Assembly: GCA_018650645.1 (NCBI GenBank)
Contig: JABIFP010000027.1
Span: 24,379 to 88,378, forward strand
Origin: Candidatus Magasanikiibacteriota bacterium
GTDB lineage: Bacteria > Patescibacteriota > Patescibacteriia > Magasanikbacterales > UBA922
Direction: 5' to 3'
DNA length: 64,000 bases
How positions within the stretch are numbered: the stretch's first letter is position 1; each line of letters starts with the position of its first letter. Below are positions 2,649-46,697 of this stretch, in pieces. The translations under genes and the position numbers were made by a program. Below the pieces are notes generated by a model. It was not told the DNA's origin. It worked only from the letters and a program-made list of their open reading frames with translations, and ran no database searches.

Positions 2649-3995
2649 TTGTCCACTATGATCAAGACATTAGTCAAAAAAATACTCCCAAAGTCAGTCT
2701 GGAACCTTAGGCATCTATTTTATGCTGCATATGGTGCTTTTAAGTATAAGTTTCCGTCAAAAAAACTATTTATTATTGGTGTGACAGGAACAAGTGGAAA
2801 GAGTAGTACAATATACATTTTACATCAGCTCCTAGAAAATGCTGGTTTTACAGTTGGTTCACTCTCAACAATCGAGTTTCATATTGGGCAAGACGCAAAG
2901 CTCAACGATAAAAAGATGACCATGCTTGGCCGCACAGCAATACAGAGATATTTGCGCCGCATGGTAGACGAAGGAATAGATATAGCTATTGTAGAAACAA
3001 CCTCTGAGGGGCGCGTACAGCACAGACATCGCTTTATTGAGTATGATGTCATGATGCTCACAAATTTGTATCCGGAACATATTGAATCGCATGGAAGTTT
3101 TAAGGCATACAAACAAGCAAAGGTTGATATTTTTGATTACGCAGCTTCATTAAAAAGAAAAAATCGATCAGCACTTACTACACGTGTGCAAAAAGTACTA
3201 CAGTCGCCAAAAGTTCAAAAGCAAGCAATTATATGCAAAGACGTTGATCACCACGGTCCGTTTGCAAGCGATGCTTTTGACAGCGTGAAATATTTTGGGC
3301 ACAAGCCAAGTGAATTTCAATTTACAAAAGTAGGACAAAGTGCAGAAGGATTACACTTCTCTATTAATGATACAAAAGTGCAGGCACCATTATTTGCCGC
3401 ATACAATGCACACAACATTACCGCTGCGGTTGCTGCTGCGGCATCGCTTGGCTGCAGCGAGGAGTCATTAAAAGAAGCGCTTACTACATTGAAACCTATT
3501 CCAGGAAGAATAGAGTTTATAACTGCAGCTGAGCAGTACGGGTTTAAAGCAATTGTAGATTACGCATTTGAACCAGTTGCAATCGCGGCATTGTATGAAG
3601 TGGTAAGACTCCTAAAACCCAATAAGATTATTCATGTATTCGGTTCTACTGGTGGAGGAAGAGATGTAGCCAGAAGATTTTCTGTTGGTGAATTTGTTGG
3701 TCTTAACGCAGATTACTGTATTGTTACAGATGAAGACCCATATGATGATGATCCTATGGAAATTATGAACGATGTGGCAAAGGCGCTACGTGATGTAGGG
3801 AAGAAAGAAGGAGTAGATATGATTATTGAGCCAGATAGGTCAAGAGCTATTGCTCTAGCGGTAAAAAGGGCTGCCCCTGGCGATGTTGTGCTCGTCACAG
3901 GGAAAGGTTCTGAGCAGGCAATGTTCGTAAAGGGAGAGCTTCTCCCATGGGACGATAGAGTTGAGCTTCGAAAAGCACTCAGCAGCAAAGCGTAA
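2649..3995 (+). CDS. Mur ligase family protein (MurE/MurF-like UDP-N-acetylmuramoyl peptide ligase)
   Basis: P-loop GVTGTSGKSST, the central Mur ligase domain, and a C-terminal GDVVLVTGKGSE motif. Confidence 0.75.
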   Translation: MSTMIKTLVKKILPKSVWNLRHLFYAAYGAFKYKFPSKKLFIIGVTGTSGKSSTIYILHQLLENAGFTVGSLSTIEFHIGQDAKLNDKKMTMLGRTAIQRYLRRMVDEGIDIAIVETTSEGRVQHRHRFIEYDVMMLTNLYPEHIESHGSFKAYKQAKVDIFDYAASLKRKNRSALTTRVQKVLQSPKVQKQAIICKDVDHHGPFASDAFDSVKYFGHKPSEFQFTKVGQSAEGLHFSINDTKVQAPLFAAYNAHNITAAVAAAASLGCSEESLKEALTTLKPIPGRIEFITAAEQYGFKAIVDYAFEPVAIAALYEVVRLLKPNKIIHVFGSTGGGRDVARRFSVGEFVGLNADYCIVTDEDPYDDDPMEIMNDVAKALRDVGKKEGVDMIIEPDRSRAIALAVKRAAPGDVVLVTGKGSEQAMFVKGELLPWDDRVELRKALSSKA

Positions 3996-7213: not shown

Positions 7214-7284
7214 TCGGAGATCGTCTAATGGTAGGACTCTAGGTTTTGATCCTAGCTATCGGGGTTCGAATCCCTGTCTCCGAG
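7214..7284 (+). tRNA. tRNA-Gln (anticodon UUG)
   Basis: TCGGAGATCGTCTAATGGTAGGACTCTAGGTTTTGATCCTAGCTATCGGGGTTCGAATCCCTGTCTCCGAG. The cloverleaf folds, with a U1-A72 acceptor pair and anticodon loop UUUUGAU. Confidence 0.8.
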
Positions 7285-7426
7285 CGAATAAAAAAGCTCT
7301 GCTTTTTTATTTGAGAGGTGCAGGAGATGAGAACCTTTAGGTTCGACCGCCTAGTGGAGCGAGTCAAGAGGGTAGTTCTATCCTTTTGTGAGCGAAGTGC
7401 CGGTGGAACGAGGGCGTAGCCCGAGT

Positions 7427-7443
7427 AATCCCTGTCTCCGAGC
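7427..7443 (+). repeat. exact 17-bp direct repeat of the tRNA-Gln 3' end (AATCCCTGTCTCCGAGC), first copy at 7269-7285
   Basis: Identical 17-mer found 158 bp downstream of the tRNA 3' end. A palindromic terminator-like AAAAAAGCTCTGCTTTTTT lies in between. Confidence 0.8.
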
Positions 7444-7510
7444 AAGCAGTATTGATGTGATAAGAATAATCACGTATACTACTGCCAGCGCATATGCGCA
7501 ACCATACCAT

Positions 7511-7931
7511 TCGACGGTAGCTCAGTGGTAGAGCAGTTGGCTGTATCCAACATGTAAGTCGAAGTGAAAACCGTCATGTTTCCACCTTCATCGGTGGGGC
7601 AGGGCAAGCTACGACTGCAAAAATGCAGCCCTCAACAGGAATGTTGAGGTGAATAACGAGGTGAACTGCTGGAAGCCCTCTATTGATGCAAATCAATCGG
7701 GTAATCAGCAGCCAAGCCCCACGCACTTTTTCTTTATTGATGTGTGGGGAAGGTTCAGAGACTATCCCTTGCGGGAGTACTCTCCACATTTGTGGAGGGG
7801 AAGCGCCTCGCACCCGGCCGTCCCTTTCCAAGAGAAGGGTTATGACGAGGGTGATGATATAGTCCACGCTTCAGTGAGAATTGAAGATTGCGTGTAACCA
7901 ATTGGTCGCGAGTTCGAATCTCGCCCGTCGA
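7511..7931 (+). tRNA. tRNA-Asn (anticodon GUU) interrupted by a group I intron in the anticodon loop (exons 7511-7544 and 7895-7931)
   Basis: Joined exons give TCGACGGTAGCTCAGTGGTAGAGCAGTTGGCTGT|TAACCAATTGGTCGCGAGTTCGAATCTCGCCCGTCGAG. This is nearly identical in D-arm and anticodon arm to bacterial tRNA-Asn (e.g. GGCTGTTAACC). The 7-bp acceptor stem is TCGACGG/CCGTCGA. Confidence 0.8.
7545..7894 (+). ncRNA. group I self-splicing intron (tRNA-Leu/IC3-like core) inserted between anticodon positions 35 and 36
   Basis: 5' exon ends in U and the intron ends in G. Conserved R element GGTTCAGAGACTA at 7752-7764 and S element GATATAGTCC at about 7855-7866. CTTGCGGGAG follows R, as in the Anabaena tRNA-Leu intron. 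An 8-bp P2-like hairpin CCTCAACA-GGAA-TGTTGAGG follows a candidate internal guide GCAGCC. Confidence 0.7.
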
Positions 7932-7933
7932 GC

Positions 7934-7970
7934 AAAAAAAACGAAGCCTAGGTTTGGCTTCGTTTTTTTG
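7934..7970 (+). terminator. rho-independent terminator after tRNA-Asn (AACGAAGCC-TAGGTTT-GGCTTCGTT followed by a T-run)
   Basis: Perfect 9-bp stem flanked by an A8 run and a T7 run. Confidence 0.75.
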
Positions 7971-8307
7971 TTTTATTTCAGCCAAAAGTGAGTGGTAATT
8001 ACAGCTTGTATATGATTGCATTTCCATCTATGTATGGTTTTTGTAGGTTTTTTTATGAAAAAAAACCTTACACGAACAGTGGATAACATGATTGACAGAA
8101 CTGCTTTTTTCTGATACATTAGGCCGTTAGTTTGTTTTTTATGTCGAGGATCCCCGCCTTCTTTTGGTTTATTTTAGCGTAAATAACCCGAAAGAAGGCT
8201 GTGAATTTCCTCCAGTCATTGCGGTGTCTGTTTGACAATGGCAGTAATATGCTCGACATGGGGTCGGGTGTAGAGCTGTTTGTCGGCAGATGCAAGGATG
8301 AGAGAAG

Positions 8308-8880
8308 ATGGACAAGCTAATCACGGCCAACCAGATCTTCGAGCTCCTCGGAGAGAACAAGCTCGGGCGCATTACCCGGGATCAACTGCAGGCGTTTTTG
8401 ATGTACCCTCTGGGCTGGAGGAACACCGGCGAGATCATCGAGTACGATCTCAAGCTCGGGCGCGATGCGATTAGTGCGCACGTGGCCGAAGGCAACTACG
8501 AGCACTTCGTCAGCCCTAACATCAGCACATTAGTCCACCACCTCGCCGGGCGGGGCTTTCGCACGGTGAGGTTCAAGCTTGTCCCGGGCAAGCTGTTCCA
8601 GAAACCTGAGCCGCACTTCCACTACTGCGAACGCGAGGACTTCCAGCTGTACTGCCAAGATCACCAACTCCGAGAGCCCAACGCGGCCGAGGCGACGCTG
8701 TACCCCGCCATGGACAGGCAGGTCGGGATCAAGAGCGGACCGCTGTACGCCTTCATCCACGAAGAGGATGCAATGTTCTCCGTGAGTTCTGAAGATGGCA
8801 AACGACAGCTCCTCTGGCAGAAAGCCAGCTGTACTCGTGGCTACTCTAGCGACCGGCTGTTCCTGGCCGTCTGCGTTTAG
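8308..8880 (+). CDS. hypothetical protein in GC-rich islet
   Basis: 190 aa. AGGA SD about 10 nt upstream. Balanced amino-acid composition. The antisense ORF 8530..9084 is R/G/P-rich and judged spurious. Downstream hairpin CCCCCGAC-GTA-GTCGGGGG at about 8936-8955. Confidence 0.5.
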   Translation: MDKLITANQIFELLGENKLGRITRDQLQAFLMYPLGWRNTGEIIEYDLKLGRDAISAHVAEGNYEHFVSPNISTLVHHLAGRGFRTVRFKLVPGKLFQKPEPHFHYCEREDFQLYCQDHQLREPNAAEATLYPAMDRQVGIKSGPLYAFIHEEDAMFSVSSEDGKRQLLWQKASCTRGYSSDRLFLAVCV

Positions 8881-9205
8881 TCGCTTGGGTCCTTGCGGAC
8901 TTTGCCCTCGGGCATTGGTTCCTTGGACACTTGGTTTCTTCCCCCGACGTAGTCGGGGGTCGACGCCGACCGGGCGACTACCTACACCCCGTGTGTGAAA
9001 GTTCGAAAGAACGAGTAACGCGCGGGTTTTTTCATATTCAAAAATTTTGTATAAAGAAAGAATTGTCGCTATCGCAAGCAGCATAATTTCTTTGTCACAT
9101 ATTGCAAAAAATAAAGCTACAATAAATTGCCAGGTTAATTTTCACTTTGCTACGTTAAGCAAAGAATCAAGGATTCTGTTTCGAACTACATCCAGCTGCC
9201 CGAGC

Positions 9206-9240: not shown

Positions 9241-9350
9241 TTACCTTCAATTGCTTCAACGTATTAAAGCGATATTTAGGTAGGGATCTTGCGATCCCTG
9301 ACCTCCTTTCGTCAGTTGTTGTTTGGTTCATTCAGCCAGCGGTGTTGCCG

Positions 9351-9872
9351 CTAGCCCATGCTGATGTGCATGACCAGCACCGACTCGACGTCGAAGCTGT
9401 GCGGGTGCACCAGGGGCAGGTCGGCGGCCAGGGCCGTCTTCATGATGCCGATCGCCGTGGGGATGTCCATGAGGGACTTGCCCACGATATCCACCATAGC
9501 GCTGAGCGTACCGCTGAAGCAGCAGGTGGTGAGCCCACGCTTGTCTTCGTCACGCCGGATCACGAGGCACTGGTCCTCGATCACGGCGGTGAAGCCCTGC
9601 ATGGTGCACGCACCCGGGTAGCTGCGGACGAGCTCCGCAATAGCGGCGGCGTCCTTCGGCAGGTCCTTGCCCACCTTCCGGAGGAAGGGGGCGCCGATCT
9701 CGATGATGTCGAGATCTCGGCTGTCGGCCAGGTGACCGACCTCGGCGTTCAGCATCTGGCGCGTGTAGATCAGCTGCGACTCGTAGTCGTCATGATCCGT
9801 GACGTTGCCCTGCTTGATGCCGAGAGCCTGGAGAAGCGGGTTGTTCCCGCTGGTGAAGGAAACTTCCTTCAT
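9351..9872 (-). CDS. hypothetical protein in GC-rich islet
   Basis: 173 aa with protein-like composition. The overlapping plus-strand ORF 9342..9935 is H/R/G/D-rich and judged spurious. The GC-rich block runs about 9285-9960. Confidence 0.5.
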   Translation of the reverse strand: MKEVSFTSGNNPLLQALGIKQGNVTDHDDYESQLIYTRQMLNAEVGHLADSRDLDIIEIGAPFLRKVGKDLPKDAAAIAELVRSYPGACTMQGFTAVIEDQCLVIRRDEDKRGLTTCCFSGTLSAMVDIVGKSLMDIPTAIGIMKTALAADLPLVHPHSFDVESVLVMHISMG

Positions 9873-10089
9873 GATGCATCCGTTTCTAGAAAACTGACTT
9901 CAGCTCGTTGCTGTCCCCAAGTCGTTCTCTTGTAGTGGTTGTGAGGGGAAGAAAAGCTTGTGATGACCTTTCTTCCTCCCAAAACAGATTGATATAGGAC
10001 TATAGACTATATTCACACTTTTGTCAATGATCGAGTAAAATTGTTATACACATAGGGCATTCACCAGAATTCCTCTATACTGCATATAT

Positions 10090-41686: not shown

Positions 41687-43846
41687 ATGATACTTCCATA
41701 CATCCACGAGTACTATACAAAACGCTCTGGAGCAAAGGACCATATCCTTCTTCATATAGCAGAGCCTGATGCAAATGACACCGATCATGGGCTGTTTTTT
41801 GCTATTATCTCATTACCCTCAGAGGCTCCTCATACAATTGTTGAAGATGCACAGGATGTGGTTGGACTAATGGAACGATTATATTTTTCTACTCAGAGGA
41901 CCGACGATAAGCGTCCATTTGAAATAGCTACTGAGGTAACGAATGCAAAACATGCAACACTTGTAAAAACATTACTTGAGAATACCAGCTGTGCGATTGG
42001 TGTTATCCACAAAAAGAATATTGCTTTTGTTGCTCAAGGAGAGGATGTATATATTGACCTACTCACAACGAATGATGATGGTGATTCATCTACCCCACTC
42101 GCTCCAACAGCAAAGCAGCACACTGACAGATTCAGCGCTGTTACAGAAGGAACGTTGAACACAAAAAGTTATCTTCACATCAGTACATTTCATGCAAGAG
42201 ACATATTTACACCTGAGCGAATGCTTAAGCTTCTTAAGCAACTTTCCGCAAAAGAGCTTGCTGCACACGTGCAGAAATCGCTTGATGCTGTAAAACACGC
42301 TGCAGCCGGAGGTTGTATTTTACAAATAGAAAAAACGACCGAGAAGCCTCCTGCTCACCCAGTTCGAAGTGAAAAATCACTCAACTCTCTAAAAGCGCGT
42401 GAGCAACAAACAGCAGAGACGCTACGCCCTTCAATATTTCAAACACTCTCTAAAACCCTCGCAACAGACGATAAAAAGGCAAACACGAGAACGACGCGGG
42501 CACGGAAACGAGATGGTGATGGCACGAGCTATGCTGCTGAGCGTGGTACTGCATATGCCAAACTTGTATTTAGAGCAGTGCTTCTAGCGCTCGGTGGCAT
42601 AGCGCTCATACTTCGTCATATATTCTTTGCCATTATTTCTGGTATAAAAATTTTGTACTACTTGCTCACTAATGCAAAAGGAAAACGATCAATCATGCAG
42701 CAGCAGTTCAAAGAGCAACTTCGCAGAAAAAGAAATTGGTTTGCGGCTATGCCAATGCTCAGTAAGCTCCTACTTGTAGCAGCAACTTCGTTTACACTGA
42801 TTTTTGTCTCTAGTATTGGCTACCTTAGGTATAATGCTAACAAAGTCGTTGCACTCAAACAATCACAAACCACATTAATCGCGGCTCAGGAACATCTAGC
42901 AAGTGCAAAAAGCGCCTCCATTTATGGTAATGATACAGATGCTCTAAATGAACTGCACCAAGCGCAGGCTCAGTTTTCTTCAATCTCAGAGCGCGACGCT
43001 GATGAGTTGTCCTCATATGGTTCAACACAAACAGCCATTTCAGAATTACTTCAATCACTTAGAAAGGAACACATAATTGAGTCTACGGTTCTCCTTGCAG
43101 ATTCAGCACTTTCATCGTTTACCGAGCTGACAGCCGCTGACGATAGAATGTATGTATTCGGTGAGCAAGAATCCTCATATGCATGGTTTACACCGTTTAA
43201 GGATGCGGCGCTTCAAAACGTACCATTTGAAGCTATCAGTGATCTTACATTTTCTTCTGCCGATGAGACCTATGTACTTGCAGGAAGCGCAGCTGGAGAA
43301 ATTGCAAGAATAGAGTCCTCTGAGTCAGGACTCACAGCGCAGCAGATTTCATTTCCTGATGAAGGTGTAGTACTCGCTTCAATGGCTCAATATGGTGGAA
43401 GGCTCTATACACTAGCAAAACCTTTTGCTATCTACAAGCATGCAAAAACGCAGCTTGGATTTGATAGAGGGCTGTCCTGGATTAGTGCGCAATCAGATAC
43501 CATTAATGAACCCGTAGATCTCACAATCGATGGCAGTGTGTATGTACTCTCTCCTACGGAGGTGTTCGTATTTATGAAAGGAGCACAGCAAAGCTTCAGA
43601 CTTGAATCGGTTGATCCTGCAATGACTGGTGCGAGCAGTATTTACTCATCGCCTGAATCGGAGTATCTCTTTATTCTTGAGCCTGATCTAAAGCGCGTAT
43701 TAGTTTTCTCAAAATCTGGTTCATTTATTGCGCAATTCACTTCTCCTGAGTGGAATCACCCAACGGCTATGAGCATTAATGAAGAAGAACGAACGATTAC
43801 TGTTCTTGATGGTTCGTCTGTCTTTCAAATTTCCTTTCTTCTATAA
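41687..43846 (+). CDS. large hypothetical protein with central TM segments
   Basis: 719-aa ORF. Two hydrophobic helices around residues 290-370. No recognizable catalytic motifs. Confidence 0.6.
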   Translation: MILPYIHEYYTKRSGAKDHILLHIAEPDANDTDHGLFFAIISLPSEAPHTIVEDAQDVVGLMERLYFSTQRTDDKRPFEIATEVTNAKHATLVKTLLENTSCAIGVIHKKNIAFVAQGEDVYIDLLTTNDDGDSSTPLAPTAKQHTDRFSAVTEGTLNTKSYLHISTFHARDIFTPERMLKLLKQLSAKELAAHVQKSLDAVKHAAAGGCILQIEKTTEKPPAHPVRSEKSLNSLKAREQQTAETLRPSIFQTLSKTLATDDKKANTRTTRARKRDGDGTSYAAERGTAYAKLVFRAVLLALGGIALILRHIFFAIISGIKILYYLLTNAKGKRSIMQQQFKEQLRRKRNWFAAMPMLSKLLLVAATSFTLIFVSSIGYLRYNANKVVALKQSQTTLIAAQEHLASAKSASIYGNDTDALNELHQAQAQFSSISERDADELSSYGSTQTAISELLQSLRKEHIIESTVLLADSALSSFTELTAADDRMYVFGEQESSYAWFTPFKDAALQNVPFEAISDLTFSSADETYVLAGSAAGEIARIESSESGLTAQQISFPDEGVVLASMAQYGGRLYTLAKPFAIYKHAKTQLGFDRGLSWISAQSDTINEPVDLTIDGSVYVLSPTEVFVFMKGAQQSFRLESVDPAMTGASSIYSSPESEYLFILEPDLKRVLVFSKSGSFIAQFTSPEWNHPTAMSINEEERTITVLDGSSVFQISFLL

Positions 43847-43855
43847 TTACGTAAA

Positions 43856-43884
43856 CAAAAAAAGAGCACAAGGCTCTTTTTTTG
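43856..43884 (+). terminator. bidirectional terminator AAAAAAAGAGC-ACAAG-GCTCTTTTTTT
   Basis: Perfect palindrome between convergent ORF 41687..43846 and rplL. Confidence 0.75.
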
Positions 43885-43899
43885 TTTTGTAGTAATGAA

Positions 43900-44304
43900 T
43901 TACTTCAAAGTTACAGTAGCTCCAGCTTCCTCAAGAGATTTCTTGAGTTCTTCAGCTTCAGCTTTTGCAATTCCTTCTTTAATAGCAGTTGGCGCACCAT
44001 CTACCATTCCTTTTGCTTCAGCAAGACCAAGTCCTGTTGCCGCTTTTACTGCTTTGATAACACCAATTTTGTTGTCACCGATTGCAGTAAGTTCTACAGT
44101 AAATTCAGTTTGTTCTTCTGCAGCAGCTTCTCCGCCAGCAGCAGGAGCCGCCATCATCATAGCTGGAGCTGCAGCGCTCACACCAAACTTGTCTTCAAGG
44201 ATTGAAACAAGTTCAGAAAGATCAAGAACACTCATCTTTTCGATTTGCTCTACAAGAGCAGTGAACTTTTCAGGTACTACTACCTCTGTTTTTTCTTCTG
44301 ACAT
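43900..44304 (-). CDS. rplL: 50S ribosomal protein L7/L12
   Basis: N-terminal dimerization domain, Ala/Pro-rich hinge, and C-terminal domain [27 protein letters not shown]. Confidence 0.95.
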
Positions 44305-44313
44305 ATATATAGG

Positions 44314-44838
44314 TTATGCTTTTTTGTCCTTAATAGCATTCAAAACGGTAACTAAACCGCGTGTGTTGCCTGAAAGTACTTGAACGAATCCAGAAATAGG
44401 AGCATTCAACGTTCCAACGAGCTGACCGAGAAGCTGATGCTTGCTTGGAAGTGCTGAAAGTTGTGTTACTTTATCTTCTGTGATGTATCCACCTTCTAGG
44501 ATTCCTCCAAAGATAGTGATTACGTCATGATCCTTTGCGTACTTAGCAACGATTTGTGCTGGAGCAACTTCATCTTCGTCTGCGAAGAATGCAGCTACAC
44601 CACCTTCAAATAACTTTGTATCAACATCGCCGATACCAGCATCTGTAAGTGCACGTTTTACGAGTGTTTTCTTTGCTGCGATACAAGTAACTCCCTGTTC
44701 GCGACAAAGTCCACGAAGCTCTTCCATTTCTGAAACCTTCAAACCTTGAAAGTTAGCAAATACGGTAGCTTTTTTGCTTTTCATGAGCTCAGAAAGCTCA
44801 CTAATAGCAGTAAGTTTATGTTGTCTGGTTTTTGCCAT
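44314..44838 (-). CDS. rplJ: 50S ribosomal protein L10
   Basis: MAKTRQHK... start chosen. The track ORF extends 35 codons further upstream (to 44943), but that extension is probably leader sequence. Conserved L10 core. Confidence 0.85.
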   Translation of the reverse strand: MAKTRQHKLTAISELSELMKSKKATVFANFQGLKVSEMEELRGLCREQGVTCIAAKKTLVKRALTDAGIGDVDTKLFEGGVAAFFADEDEVAPAQIVAKYAKDHDVITIFGGILEGGYITEDKVTQLSALPSKHQLLGQLVGTLNAPISGFVQVLSGNTRGLVTVLNAIKDKKA

Positions 44839-45000
44839 AGTCTTTGTTTTTTTGTCTTGCTCATCGCAATGCGACAAACAAAAAACTGTGGAAAACCACA
44901 GACCTTCAGAGTGTTGCATCGACCTTTGAGAAATAATTCTCATGTTGCACCTCGGTAGCCTATTTAATCCCGAAGGAAGCTACTGTCTATGGTTGGCGAT

Positions 45001-45029
45001 ATTATATAGAAATTCCCCATAAATGTCAA
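45001..45029 (-). promoter_or_regulatory. consensus sigma70 promoter (TTGACA-N17-TATAAT) for the rplJ-rplL operon
   Basis: Reverse complement of 45001-45029 reads TTGACATTTATGGGGAATTTCTATATAAT. A perfect 8-bp hairpin (45032-45050) lies immediately upstream. Confidence 0.6.
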
Positions 45030-45078
45030 GAGCCGGCCCTGGGGGCCGGCTGTGGTGAGCACATTGCTCTGGCGCTGC

Positions 45079-45297
45079 CTAGCAGCAGACTTTCAAAATC
45101 CGCACCTGAGGACTCGCGAGGTGCTCGTGGACTCCTCGAGTACCGCTGATCTGGACGCGTGTTCCCGTGGACAGGTCACAGGGCTTCTGCGTCACGACCC
45201 GCGCGTTGAAAACGAGGCCGCTCTCGGTGGGGCTCACAACCTGGACCTCCGCCCACTTCCCCTTCGAACCAACCACTTGTCCATTGTAAAAGCTCAT
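45079..45297 (-). CDS. small hypothetical protein in GC-rich islet
   Basis: 72 aa. G-rich SD (AGGGGGG) upstream. Preceded by its own consensus promoter (45321-45349). Followed by hairpin GCCGGCCC-TGG-GGGCCGGC. The plus-strand overlapping ORF is judged spurious. Confidence 0.35.
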   Translation of the reverse strand: MSFYNGQVVGSKGKWAEVQVVSPTESGLVFNARVVTQKPCDLSTGTRVQISGTRGVHEHLASPQVRILKVCC

Positions 45298-45320
45298 GAA
45301 TTTCCCCCCTAGTGATGTGA

Positions 45321-45349
45321 TCTGGGCGCATTATATAGATAATTGCACC
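45321..45349 (-). promoter_or_regulatory. consensus sigma70 promoter (TTGACA-N17-TATAAT), near-duplicate of the rplJ promoter
   Basis: Reverse complement reads TTGACATGAGGTGCAATTATCTATATAAT. About 22 of 29 positions match the 45001-45029 copy. Confidence 0.5.
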
Positions 45350-45376
45350 TCATGTCAACCCCTCTGGATAAATCTA

Positions 45377-45405
45377 TTGACAGCTTCACTAAACCTCTAT
45401 ATAAT
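45377..45405 (+). promoter_or_regulatory. consensus sigma70 promoter (TTGACA-N17-TATAAT) for tRNA-Glu
   Basis: TTGACAGCTTCACTAAACCTCTATATAAT, ending 9 nt before the tRNA start. Confidence 0.6.
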
Positions 45406-45414
45406 AATGCACAT

Positions 45415-45486
45415 GTCGCCATCGTCTAGTGGTTAGGACTCCGGGTTTTCATCCCGGCAACAGGAGTTCGATTCTCCTTGGCGATA
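45415..45486 (+). tRNA. tRNA-Glu (anticodon UUC)
   Basis: GTCGCCATCGTCTAGTGGTTAGGACTCCGGGTTTTCATCCCGGCAACAGGAGTTCGATTCTCCTTGGCGATA. Cloverleaf folds with a G1-U72 wobble. Resembles bacterial tRNA-Glu. Confidence 0.8.
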
Positions 45487-45604
45487 CTACAAGGGGTGTT
45501 TACAAGAGGAATCGAACCAGGGTTGGTAAGGGACAGCGTCCCTTACATCTGGTGGAAAGGTTGGGAAAACATGAAGTGTTCCCAAAGCGCGCAGACGCGT
45601 GTGA

Positions 45605-45622
45605 GATTCTCCTTGGCGATAC
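45605..45622 (+). repeat. exact 18-bp direct repeat of the tRNA-Glu 3' end (GATTCTCCTTGGCGATAC), first copy at 45470-45487
   Basis: Identical 18-mer 135 bp downstream. The intervening segment contains a reverse-oriented T-loop-like GGTTCGATTCC fragment. Confidence 0.8.
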
Positions 45623-45680
45623 CAATAGAGTGAAATCAAAATAGTGGCCAACGGGCCACTATTTTGTTAGGATAAATTAT

Positions 45681-46697
45681 ATGAGTAAAAAATATACAAT
45701 TTTGGGTATTGAGTCATCATGTGACGATACCGGCGTTTCTATCATTTCTACTGACGGAAACTCGTTTAAAATCCTCTTTGAGAAAACAGCAAGCCAGATT
45801 GATATTCACAAACAATATGGCGGTGTTATTCCTGAAGTTGCGGGAAGACTCCACTGTGAGGCAATCGCACCGCTTCTTGAAGAAGCACTTAGTAGTGTGG
45901 CAAATATTGATGCAATTGCAGTAACTGCAATGCCTGGGCTCATTACCGGACTACACGTTGGGGTTGAAGCTGCAAAAACACTTTCTTATACAAAGGATAT
46001 TCCTCTTGTGGGTGTTCATCATATTGAAGGACACATCATGAGTCCGCTTCTTAACAAAGGGGCTGCTATTGATGCTGTCTCATTTCCACTTCTGGCACTT
46101 GTTGTAAGTGGTGGCCATACGCAGCTTGTCCATGTCCATGAGTTTGGATCTTACTCTGTTATTGGGGATACTAGAGATGATGCAGCCGGAGAATGTTTTG
46201 ATAAAGTAGGAAAGCTCATGGGATTCATCTATCCTGGAGGGCCAAAAGTTTCAAAAGCAGCAATTGGGCATGAAGACAACATTCCCTTGCCGCGACCAAT
46301 GATGCACCATGATTCACTCGACTTTAGCTTTTCTGGATTGAAAACCGCTGCAAGATATTATCTCAGAGATAATCCAAATGCTGATGTTGGAGATGTATCA
46401 GCATCATTGGAAGCAGCAATTGTAGAAACACTTGCATATAAAACAAAAAAGGCGGCCATGCAAATTGGCGCCAAAACAGTTTTTGTTGTAGGCGGCGTGA
46501 GTGCAAACAGCGCACTCCGTGAATCGCTAGCAACATCGCTTGAAACGCAACATATTGCGCTTATTGCCCCAGAACTTGCGCATTGTACTGATAACGCAGC
46601 AATGATCGCTTGCGCCGCTACAAGGAGAGTTATGCATGGATCATTTGATTCAGTCAGTGAGCTTACTGCTAGCCCCGTTGGCATGCTCCCTCAATAA
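45681..46697 (+). CDS. tsaD: tRNA N6-adenosine threonylcarbamoyltransferase TsaD
   Basis: Kae1/TsaD family: ILGIESSCDDTGVSI, HxEGH metal site (HHIEGH), C-terminal GGVSANSALR. Confidence 0.9.
   Translation: MSKKYTILGIESSCDDTGVSIISTDGNSFKILFEKTASQIDIHKQYGGVIPEVAGRLHCEAIAPLLEEALSSVANIDAIAVTAMPGLITGLHVGVEAAKTLSYTKDIPLVGVHHIEGHIMSPLLNKGAAIDAVSFPLLALVVSGGHTQLVHVHEFGSYSVIGDTRDDAAGECFDKVGKLMGFIYPGGPKVSKAAIGHEDNIPLPRPMMHHDSLDFSFSGLKTAARYYLRDNPNADVGDVSASLEAAIVETLAYKTKKAAMQIGAKTVFVVGGVSANSALRESLATSLETQHIALIAPELAHCTDNAAMIACAATRRVMHGSFDSVSELTASPVGMLPQ

Follow-up and report, generated by a model that had tools for sequence, protein, structure and literature searches.

We examined a 64-kb window (64,000 nucleotides; by window we mean the whole stretch of DNA that was analysed) from a Candidatus Magasanikbacteria genome, and within it the interval that separates a plus-strand tRNA-Glu (UUC) gene from the minus-strand genes rplJ and rplL, which encode ribosomal proteins L10 and L7/L12 (Table 1). 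Read towards rplJ, this interval holds a consensus promoter (P1), a GC-rich segment (hereafter cargo) with an open reading frame (ORF) of 72 codons, and a second consensus promoter (P2) followed by the L10 leader and rplJ-rplL. GC content is 58-65% across 45050-45300, compared with 42.6% for the window. The ORF product begins MSFYNGQVVGSK; the leader of 26 nt between P1 and the ORF carries a G-run resembling a Shine-Dalgarno (SD) motif, and a perfect hairpin, all of whose base pairs but one are G-C, lies 27 nt after the stop codon. An earlier reading made from the letters of the DNA (the sequence-only reading) had described these elements: a perfect minus-strand promoter ahead of the L10 leader and rplJ-rplL, a second promoter upstream of it, and between the two a small GC-rich ORF with a G-rich SD and a perfect hairpin. 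We found each of them, with the leader identified by Rfam (54.3 bits against a gathering score of 44, full-length model positions 1-138, upstream of rplJ) and rplJ by Pfam; the second promoter is indeed present and perfect, but had been placed 9 nt away from its true position, at 45321-45349.

Table 1. Features of the tRNA-Glu/rplJ interval and its surroundings, in window coordinates
Feature	Coordinates	Strand	Remarks
rplL (L7/L12, 134 aa)	43900..44304	-	
rplJ (ribosomal protein L10, 174 aa)	44314..44838	-	Pfam Ribosomal_L10, 6e-21
L10 leader (RF00557)	44868..45010	-	Rfam covariance model; contains attenuator hairpin 44901-44886 plus T-run
P2	45001..45029	-	Perfect TTGACA-N17-TATAAT (12/12); positional orthologue of the relatives' single rplJ promoter
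Hairpin A-GCCGGCCC / GGGCCGGC-T	45031..45051	-	Perfect, 9 bp, 3-nt loop, -19.2 kcal/mol
GC-rich cargo, 299 bp, 61% GC	45031..45329	-	Edges are the end of the P1 -10 and the start of the P2 -35
72-aa orphan ORF	45079..45297	-	Predicted five-strand beta-barrel, OB-like
SD-like AGGGGGG	45304..45310	-	6 nt upstream of ATG
P1	45330..45358	-	Perfect TTGACA-N17-TATAAT (12/12); AT-rich left edge of the inserted segment
tRNA-Glu promoter	45377..45405	+	Perfect sigma-70-type TTGACA-N17-TATAAT (12/12); TCTA before -10
tRNA-Glu (UUC)	45415..45487	+	ARAGORN; Rfam tRNA 61.7 bits
Exact 18-nt repeat of tRNA-Glu 3' end (45470-45487)	45605..45622	+	Followed by CCA; att-like putative scar, does not flank the cargo

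Comparison with relatives indicates that P1 and the GC-rich segment are an insertion. The closest species-level relatives, also Magasanikbacteria, have L10 proteins of 65-73% identity, and the comparison covered four genome loci and 80 metagenome loci with an L10 relative. The distance from tRNA-Glu to rplJ is 577 bp here, 236-341 bp in about 26 loci and 500-1400 bp in about 12 others. We aligned the window with seven short-distance relatives in which tRNA-Glu has the same orientation (alignment A2). In all seven the site is empty: the tRNA-Glu and rplJ promoters stand back to back, and a single promoter lies directly upstream of the L10 leader, the arrangement for which the sequence-only reading had proposed searching related genomes. 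P2 aligns with this only rplJ promoter of the relatives, which keeps a short and constant spacing to the conserved GACAGTAGC leader start, and P1 plus the GC-rich segment appear as one long gap in the seven. Because P2 aligns with the relatives' promoter while P1 and the cargo fall in the gap, the alignment identifies P2 as the ancestral rplJ promoter and 45358-45031 (328 bp, comprising P1 and the 299-bp cargo) as inserted DNA. Neither the 72-aa ORF nor the segment was detected in the 80 metagenome loci, save in L062, a further identical strain with the segment from the JGI scan, nor in the seven empty-site relatives. With P2 and the L10 leader intact in the filled site, rplJ-rplL keeps its own promoter and leader. 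The L7/L12 protein itself was found on 22 contigs from JGI, ENA and Logan assemblies; among the loci listed, seven are 100% identical over 1401 nt across the junctions, an eighth has one mismatch, and a ninth covers the last 219 nt only. The junction-spanning contigs come from three assembly sources and eight samples and include contigs of 206 kb and 36 kb. JGI 3300022902, ERZ27250210 and SRR7617886 are among the source samples.

The 72-codon frame has a composition that is foreign to this genome and periodic by codon position. GC at first, second and third codon positions is 0.59/0.45/0.74, compared with 0.51-0.65/0.35-0.43/0.22-0.34 in six native genes, and the contrast between third and second positions (0.28) was attained in 0.08% of shuffles. 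Three ORFs from other GC-rich islands of the window (287, 190 and 173 aa) show a pattern like that of the 72-aa ORF, with third-position GC (GC3) of 0.75-0.90. When a codon table trained on these three island ORFs was used as a coding score, the 72-aa frame was the only one of the six frames to score positively; as a log2 ratio of island to native codon usage, it reached +0.66 per codon, and native genes ranged from -0.86 to -1.19. From this base and codon usage, together with the predicted fold and the unstructured transcript described below, we are moderately confident that the 72-aa frame genuinely encodes a protein and evolved under a GC-rich codon regime, or that it did so until recently. 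The proposal of the sequence-only reading that a foreign small gene had been inserted under a consensus promoter thus draws support both from the empty-site relatives and from the non-native codon usage. The SD-like run is a further foreign trait: 41 of 47 long ORFs of native composition lack an SD-like motif within 20 nt of their first ATG (a rough count on uncurated starts), which suggests largely SD-independent initiation in this lineage and makes the efficiency of the G-rich SD in the host uncertain.

By sequence, the 72-aa ORF is an orphan. A k-mer/HMMER search of 5.8 billion proteins returned no homologue, and an exhaustive phmmer search against 1.84 billion representative proteins returned two matches only, both to long tandem-repeat proteins and both artefacts. 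No match was found among PHROGs, PADLOC, PDB sequences or viral contigs; the only Pfam hit, SH3_TNRC18 at 16.4 bits, is under the cut-off of 27; the segment had no match in phage or plasmid DNA; and no contig was found with a gene call for the exact 72-aa product. AlphaFold, run on the single sequence without an alignment, predicted five strands at a mean predicted local distance difference test (pLDDT) score of 68.3 and a predicted template modelling (pTM) score of 0.57, compared with 42.3 and 0.30 for an antisense 86-aa ORF used as a control. The best Foldseek neighbours of this model were the DHX8 S1 domain, eIF1A, the oligonucleotide/oligosaccharide-binding (OB) domain of RsgA and OB-class ribosomal proteins, none of them significant, with uncharacterised phage proteins of 68-78 aa among the others; all TM-scores were 0.5-0.64, those of the OB/S1 matches being 0.5-0.6 at E >= 0.046 on a model of pLDDT 68. 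The ORF product resembles small OB-fold proteins (S1, cold-shock and IF1/eIF1A, of about 70 aa) in size, in its all-beta five-strand prediction and in the basic charge evident from its sequence, and its best structural neighbours are S1/OB domains; it differs from them in having no Pfam or PDB sequence match and in structural matches that are not significant (E >= 0.02). That the protein binds nucleic acid would be no more than a guess.

Our preferred reading, to which we assign a probability of roughly 60%, is that 45358-45031 is a strain-specific, horizontally acquired and self-contained transcription unit (hereafter islet) set between ancestrally back-to-back tRNA-Glu and rplJ promoters. 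P1, with a predicted transcription start near 45323, would give a short mRNA for the 72-codon ORF, and the product would be a small basic beta-barrel protein of OB/S1-like shape, possibly nucleic-acid-binding. No U-tract follows the hairpin at 45051-45031, whose tail is CUCUUGACAUUUAU, and the terminator scan did not call it; native terminators nearby have T-runs (44901-44886 was called by the scan, and 45637-45666 ends in UAUUUUG). The hairpin probably stabilises the 3' end of the mRNA or terminates only partly, and because it has no U-tract, part of P1 transcription probably reads through P2 and the leader into rplJ-rplL. L10-dependent autoregulation should be unaffected, since P2 and the L10 leader are intact. 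A role of the hairpin as a repeated element resembling repetitive extragenic palindromes was considered and set aside, as it occurs once in the window.

Several points weigh against the islet being a functional acquired gene. An ORF of at least 72 codons arises in 17% of shuffles of the 299-bp segment, so that its length alone is unremarkable at 61% GC. All copies on record are identical, which leaves no synonymous or non-synonymous changes to count, and the ORF has no homologue with which its codons could be compared. The predicted fold comes from a model of medium confidence, with the non-significant matches described above; native genes rarely use an SD, so the G-run may not function here; and neither a donor nor repeats at the flanks came to light to account for the insertion, nor an integrase in the six ORFs scanned with Pfam or in the annotations of the loci. 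Finally, no gene caller on record picked the 72-aa frame. The JGI call is a 51-aa ORF (45176-45331, minus strand) whose start at 45331 lies inside the P1 -10, upstream of any P1 transcript; ENA and Logan call the antisense 86-aa ORF (45052-45312, plus strand), which starts inside the hairpin and has no signals; and a third public call, a 71-aa ORF (45429-45644, plus strand), spans tRNA-Glu. These public gene calls are implausible, and the locus carries a lesson for annotation in that every pipeline on record miscalled it, either as the 51-aa ORF from inside the promoter or as the antisense 86-aa ORF.

The alternative that survives best, though we consider it unlikely, accepts the foreign origin and holds that the DNA is not, or is no longer, a gene: a decaying fragment or the source of a non-coding P1 transcript, with the ORF as remnant or by-product. 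The orphan status in every search, the neglect of this frame by gene callers and the ease with which GC-rich DNA yields long ORFs by chance, three of them overlapping within the segment, are all compatible with it, and a dead gene fragment would retain codon periodicity for a while. The same slot in relatives L040 and L046 is occupied by a clearly non-coding structured unit (z = -5.36), and the cargo of relative L010 has flat codon-position GC. Against it, the 72-aa ORF is unbroken from its ATG, which an SD-like run precedes, to the stop codon, and it fits exactly into the interval from the predicted start of transcription to the hairpin; it has the only positive coding score among the six frames, and its AlphaFold model is far better than that of the antisense control. 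Nor does the segment look like an RNA gene: the transcript fold is no more structured than those of shuffled sequences (z = -0.99), and no Rfam 15 match fell in 45031-45329 at E <= 1 in an E-value scan of 43800-46000. A known non-coding RNA was also sought by a gathering-threshold Rfam scan of the window, which returned tRNAs, the L10 leader and, at another place, a group I intron, and nothing else.

A second alternative, the model put forward in the sequence-only reading, is that the insertion itself duplicated the rplJ promoter, by target duplication or Campbell-type recombination, leaving P1 and P2 as flanking copies; we regard this as improbable. We defined promoters by TTGACA and TATAAT hexamers with a 17-nt spacer, with a background from 100 shuffles of the window. 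P1, P2 and the tRNA-Glu promoter, the last of which had escaped the sequence-only reading, are the only three perfect matches in 64 kb, compared with a shuffle mean of 0.01, and none of the 100 shuffles had three or more. The duplication model gains from geometry, in that P1 and P2 form a direct repeat with the cargo exactly enclosed between its copies, the P1 -10 ending at 45330 and the P2 -35 starting at 45029. P1 stands back to back with the tRNA-Glu promoter at 18 bp, where the relatives' rplJ promoter sits, and P2 lies 13 nt from the conserved leader start, also as in relatives. Both promoters match the consensus at 12 of 12 positions with a 17-nt spacer, and both contain the 10-mer TCTATATAAT, which occurs elsewhere in the window only in the tRNA-Glu promoter.

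The likeness is not specific to this pair, however. The identity of P1 and P2, put at about 22 of 29 positions in the sequence-only reading, is overstated there: an ungapped alignment gives 20/29, and one with two 1-nt gaps 24/30. Outside the hexamers they share 8/17 spacer positions, compared with 6/17 between P1 and the tRNA-Glu promoter and 7/17 between P2 and the tRNA-Glu promoter. The shared spacer part of P1 and P2 is the TCTA adjoining the -10, which the opposite-strand tRNA-Glu promoter has too, so that even this is not pair-specific, and the similarity is nearly limited to the hexamers, a result that the sequence-only reading had itself said would count against duplication. Comparison of the flanks showed that similarity ends at the promoter edges on both sides; beyond the consensus elements, the likeness of P1 and P2 does not rise above that of unrelated strong promoters. 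Moreover, L010 has the same layout with promoter spacers that are only 7/17 alike. Since the spacer matches are similar to those with the tRNA promoter, TCTA occurs in all three and the flanks are unrelated, P1 does not appear to be specifically a copy of P2, being no closer to P2 than either is to the tRNA promoter. The restriction of TCTATATAAT to these three sites suggests that sequence was copied locally between the three promoters, or homogenised among them; it is no sign that the insertion duplicated P1/P2.

That the 72-aa ORF is instead native to the rplJ neighbourhood, a small gene conserved across the lineage that might encode, say, a ribosome-associated protein, with no insertion at all, is very unlikely and largely refuted. 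Such a gene would suit a position directly upstream of rplJ-rplL under a promoter of ribosomal strength, and OB-like folds such as the one predicted here are frequent in ribosomal proteins and translation factors; L010 also holds a 72-aa ORF at the same place. The ORF is absent from the seven empty-site relatives and from the 80 metagenome loci save the identical L062, and its GC3 of 0.74 is far outside the native range. Homology with the L010 ORF was considered and rejected, the two being unrelated by BLASTP (E = 8.7) and no better matched than shuffles by Smith-Waterman (z of -0.5 for local and 1.6 for global alignment). An assembly chimera or contamination, with the GC-rich piece foreign to this genome, might be suspected from the abrupt change of composition inside a metagenome-assembled genome (MAG), but the chance of it is negligible and a chimera is excluded by the identical junctions on seven contigs (an eighth having one mismatch) from three assembly sources and eight samples, together with L062.

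The tRNA-Glu/rplJ slot is filled in other lineages as well. Relatives carrying the same ORF at similar base composition, which the sequence-only reading had named as evidence against insertion, were not encountered; several hold other GC-rich cargo instead. In L010, L035 and L036 the slot begins with a perfect promoter, continues with 460 bp of DNA at 60% GC and ends with another promoter for rplJ, the same layout as in the window, which in L010 runs tRNA promoter, P1', cargo, P2' and leader. The slot of L012 holds a GC-rich, Cys-rich ORF of 105-117 aa with multiple CxxC motifs and an AGGAG SD on the opposite strand (3325-3678, minus), and an AT-rich ORF of 78 aa predicted to be coiled-coil (2991-3227, minus); neither reached the threshold of any Pfam family. 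GC3-rich ORFs occur in the slot of L043, L048 and L049, and GC-rich segments in that of L050, L051 and L058 too. We found no sequence shared among the cargos of 23 loci by blastn or tblastx, save between identical strains and in tRNA parts, and of the ten best ORFs that relatives carry in GC-rich DNA ahead of rplJ, some of them not beside a tRNA-Glu, nine belong to no Pfam family. Because the filled sites of other lineages hold different, unrelated GC-rich cargo, the slot is, on comparison of these loci, a hot spot in which orphan cargo turns over fast.

Among known systems, the closest analogue that we can offer is the phage 'moron'. Morons, a concept due to Hendrix and colleagues, are autonomous units of promoter, gene and terminator that deviate in base composition and stand inserted between genes. 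The islet likewise consists of one small gene, a strong promoter of its own and a hairpin after the gene, deviates in composition (61% versus 42.6% GC, and GC3 of 0.74 versus 0.22-0.34), and sits in one lineage only between two functional units of which neither is disrupted. It differs in lying outside a prophage among housekeeping neighbours, with no PHROG, phage or viral-contig match; it has the promoter of a moron, but its hairpin lacks the U-tract of a true terminator; and it is GC-richer than its host, whereas mobile DNA is usually AT-richer. By analogy, then, it may be called moron-like, but in a chromosomal intergenic hot spot.

The islet also resembles tRNA-linked islands: its neighbour is a tRNA gene, and the content of the slot differs from relative to relative; the last 18 nt of this tRNA-Glu recur exactly, 135 bp downstream; and the window's other GC-rich orphan islands have tRNA genes as neighbours too. 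It differs from them in being on the 5' (promoter) side of tRNA-Glu and in measuring only 328 bp. Repeats derived from the tRNA, of the kind expected at attachment (att) sites, were considered as boundaries of the cargo and rejected, the 18-nt repeat bracketing another stretch, of 117 bp, on the far side of the tRNA. No tRNA fragment was found near the cargo, and no integrase domain in six Pfam-scanned ORFs or in the Pfam annotations of the loci. Because the cargo is on the 5' side and unbracketed by tRNA repeats, a tRNA-targeting integrase does not directly explain it. A likeness to the Escherichia coli rplKAJL-rpoBC cluster, with promoters PL11 and PL10 and an RF00557 leader, is superficial only. 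Both have two serial promoters upstream of rplJ, of which the proximal one is followed by the L10 leader, but here the upstream promoter serves an orphan ORF rather than rplK-rplA and the relatives have one promoter; in neither the window nor the closest relatives does rplK-rplA stand ahead of rplJ-rplL.

In itself the islet is an ordinary, small, horizontally acquired orphan islet in a variable hot spot, and the single locus matters little: a strain-specific orphan gene in a permissive slot, with rplJ-rplL regulation intact. Its interest is that it offers a clean example of an empty versus a filled site in an uncultured lineage of the candidate phyla radiation (CPR), and that orphan islets GC-richer than their host, beside tRNA genes and recurring in relatives, run counter to the AT bias that mobile DNA usually shows. 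A far more general proposal, and in our view a long shot, is that a systematic process operates in Magasanikbacteria by which GC3-rich orphans of a common foreign codon style are captured at tRNA-linked, promoter-rich slots under consensus host promoters. Its basis is that the window has four GC-rich segments, all near tRNA genes, and that the relatives' slot is filled with unrelated GC-rich cargo. If it were true, the DNA might have come from a GC-rich organism that serves as host or partner, or from the viruses of that organism, by way of the DNA-uptake lifestyle of CPR bacteria, and the islets would then be a molecular trace of whom these episymbionts live on. An equally long shot is that the OB-like product of 72 aa is a novel factor associated with translation and produced along with L10 and L12. 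We found nothing specific in the literature on GC-rich islands in Magasanikbacteria or CPR bacteria.

The three other GC-rich islands of the window (59-67% GC) lie at about 350-1400, 8280-9000 and 9320-9880, carry the ORFs of 287, 190 and 173 aa, and are close to tRNA-Lys, tRNA-Gln and an intron-containing tRNA. One of them has a promoter matching 11 of 12 consensus positions at its AT-rich edge (10027-9999). In the search of 5.8 billion proteins, the 287- and 173-aa products matched only their own NCBI entries, the hypothetical proteins HOE53_04350 and HOE53_04400 of a Candidatus Magasanikbacteria MAG, and the 190-aa product matched no family in Pfam, PHROGs or PADLOC and no plasmid. Identification of a donor through the three island proteins was attempted and failed, with self matches only and nothing in phages or plasmids.

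Repeats of tRNA 3' ends occur at two places in the window. The gene copy of the tRNA-Glu 3' end is not followed by CCA, unlike the distal copy, and the 17-nt 3' end of tRNA-Gln (7269-7285) is exactly repeated 158 bp downstream, at 7427-7443. Such repeats are probably, from their sequence, scars of integration into tRNA 3' ends. The spacer between the Glu repeats contains a degenerate tRNA-like T-arm on the opposite strand, and L012 has a similar 16-nt repeat of a tRNA 3' end. Near the islands, a tRNA gene at about 7509-7935 (plus strand) is split by a group I intron (Rfam Intron_gpI, 83.7 bits, 7609-7886); ARAGORN did not call it, and exon ends resembling tRNA halves flank the intron.

In the compared loci, tRNA-Glu (UUC) adjoins rplJ in about half, in both orientations; the link extends across many Magasanikbacteria (loci L010-L112), which implies that the tRNA was inverted during their evolution. 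Between tRNA-Glu and rplJ, L046 (2700-3232) and L040 (2715-3245, minus strand of each locus) hold a GC-rich unit of about 530 nt that is transcribed away from rplJ, has a promoter matching the consensus at 11 of 12 positions and ends in a T-run terminator. Its codon-position GC is flat, its minimum free energy gives the z-score of -5.36 cited above, and it is non-coding. Its conserved blocks are GGCGCTACGGGCAGAGCCCG and ACGGGAGGGGGGA...CCCCCTCCCAAGAC. Nothing in Rfam matched it even at E <= 5, nor is it a transfer-messenger RNA, and we regard it as a candidate uncharacterised structured RNA, judged from sequence and predicted folding. L040 has two further promoter-plus-terminator mini-units beside it.

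In the window itself, the ORFs flanking the islet encode TsaD, an FtsQ-type POTRA protein, a 349-aa product and the rplJ/rplL proteins, and no prophage context was recognised among them. The 349-aa ORF has a counterpart in relative L001 with FemAB-family Pfam matches.

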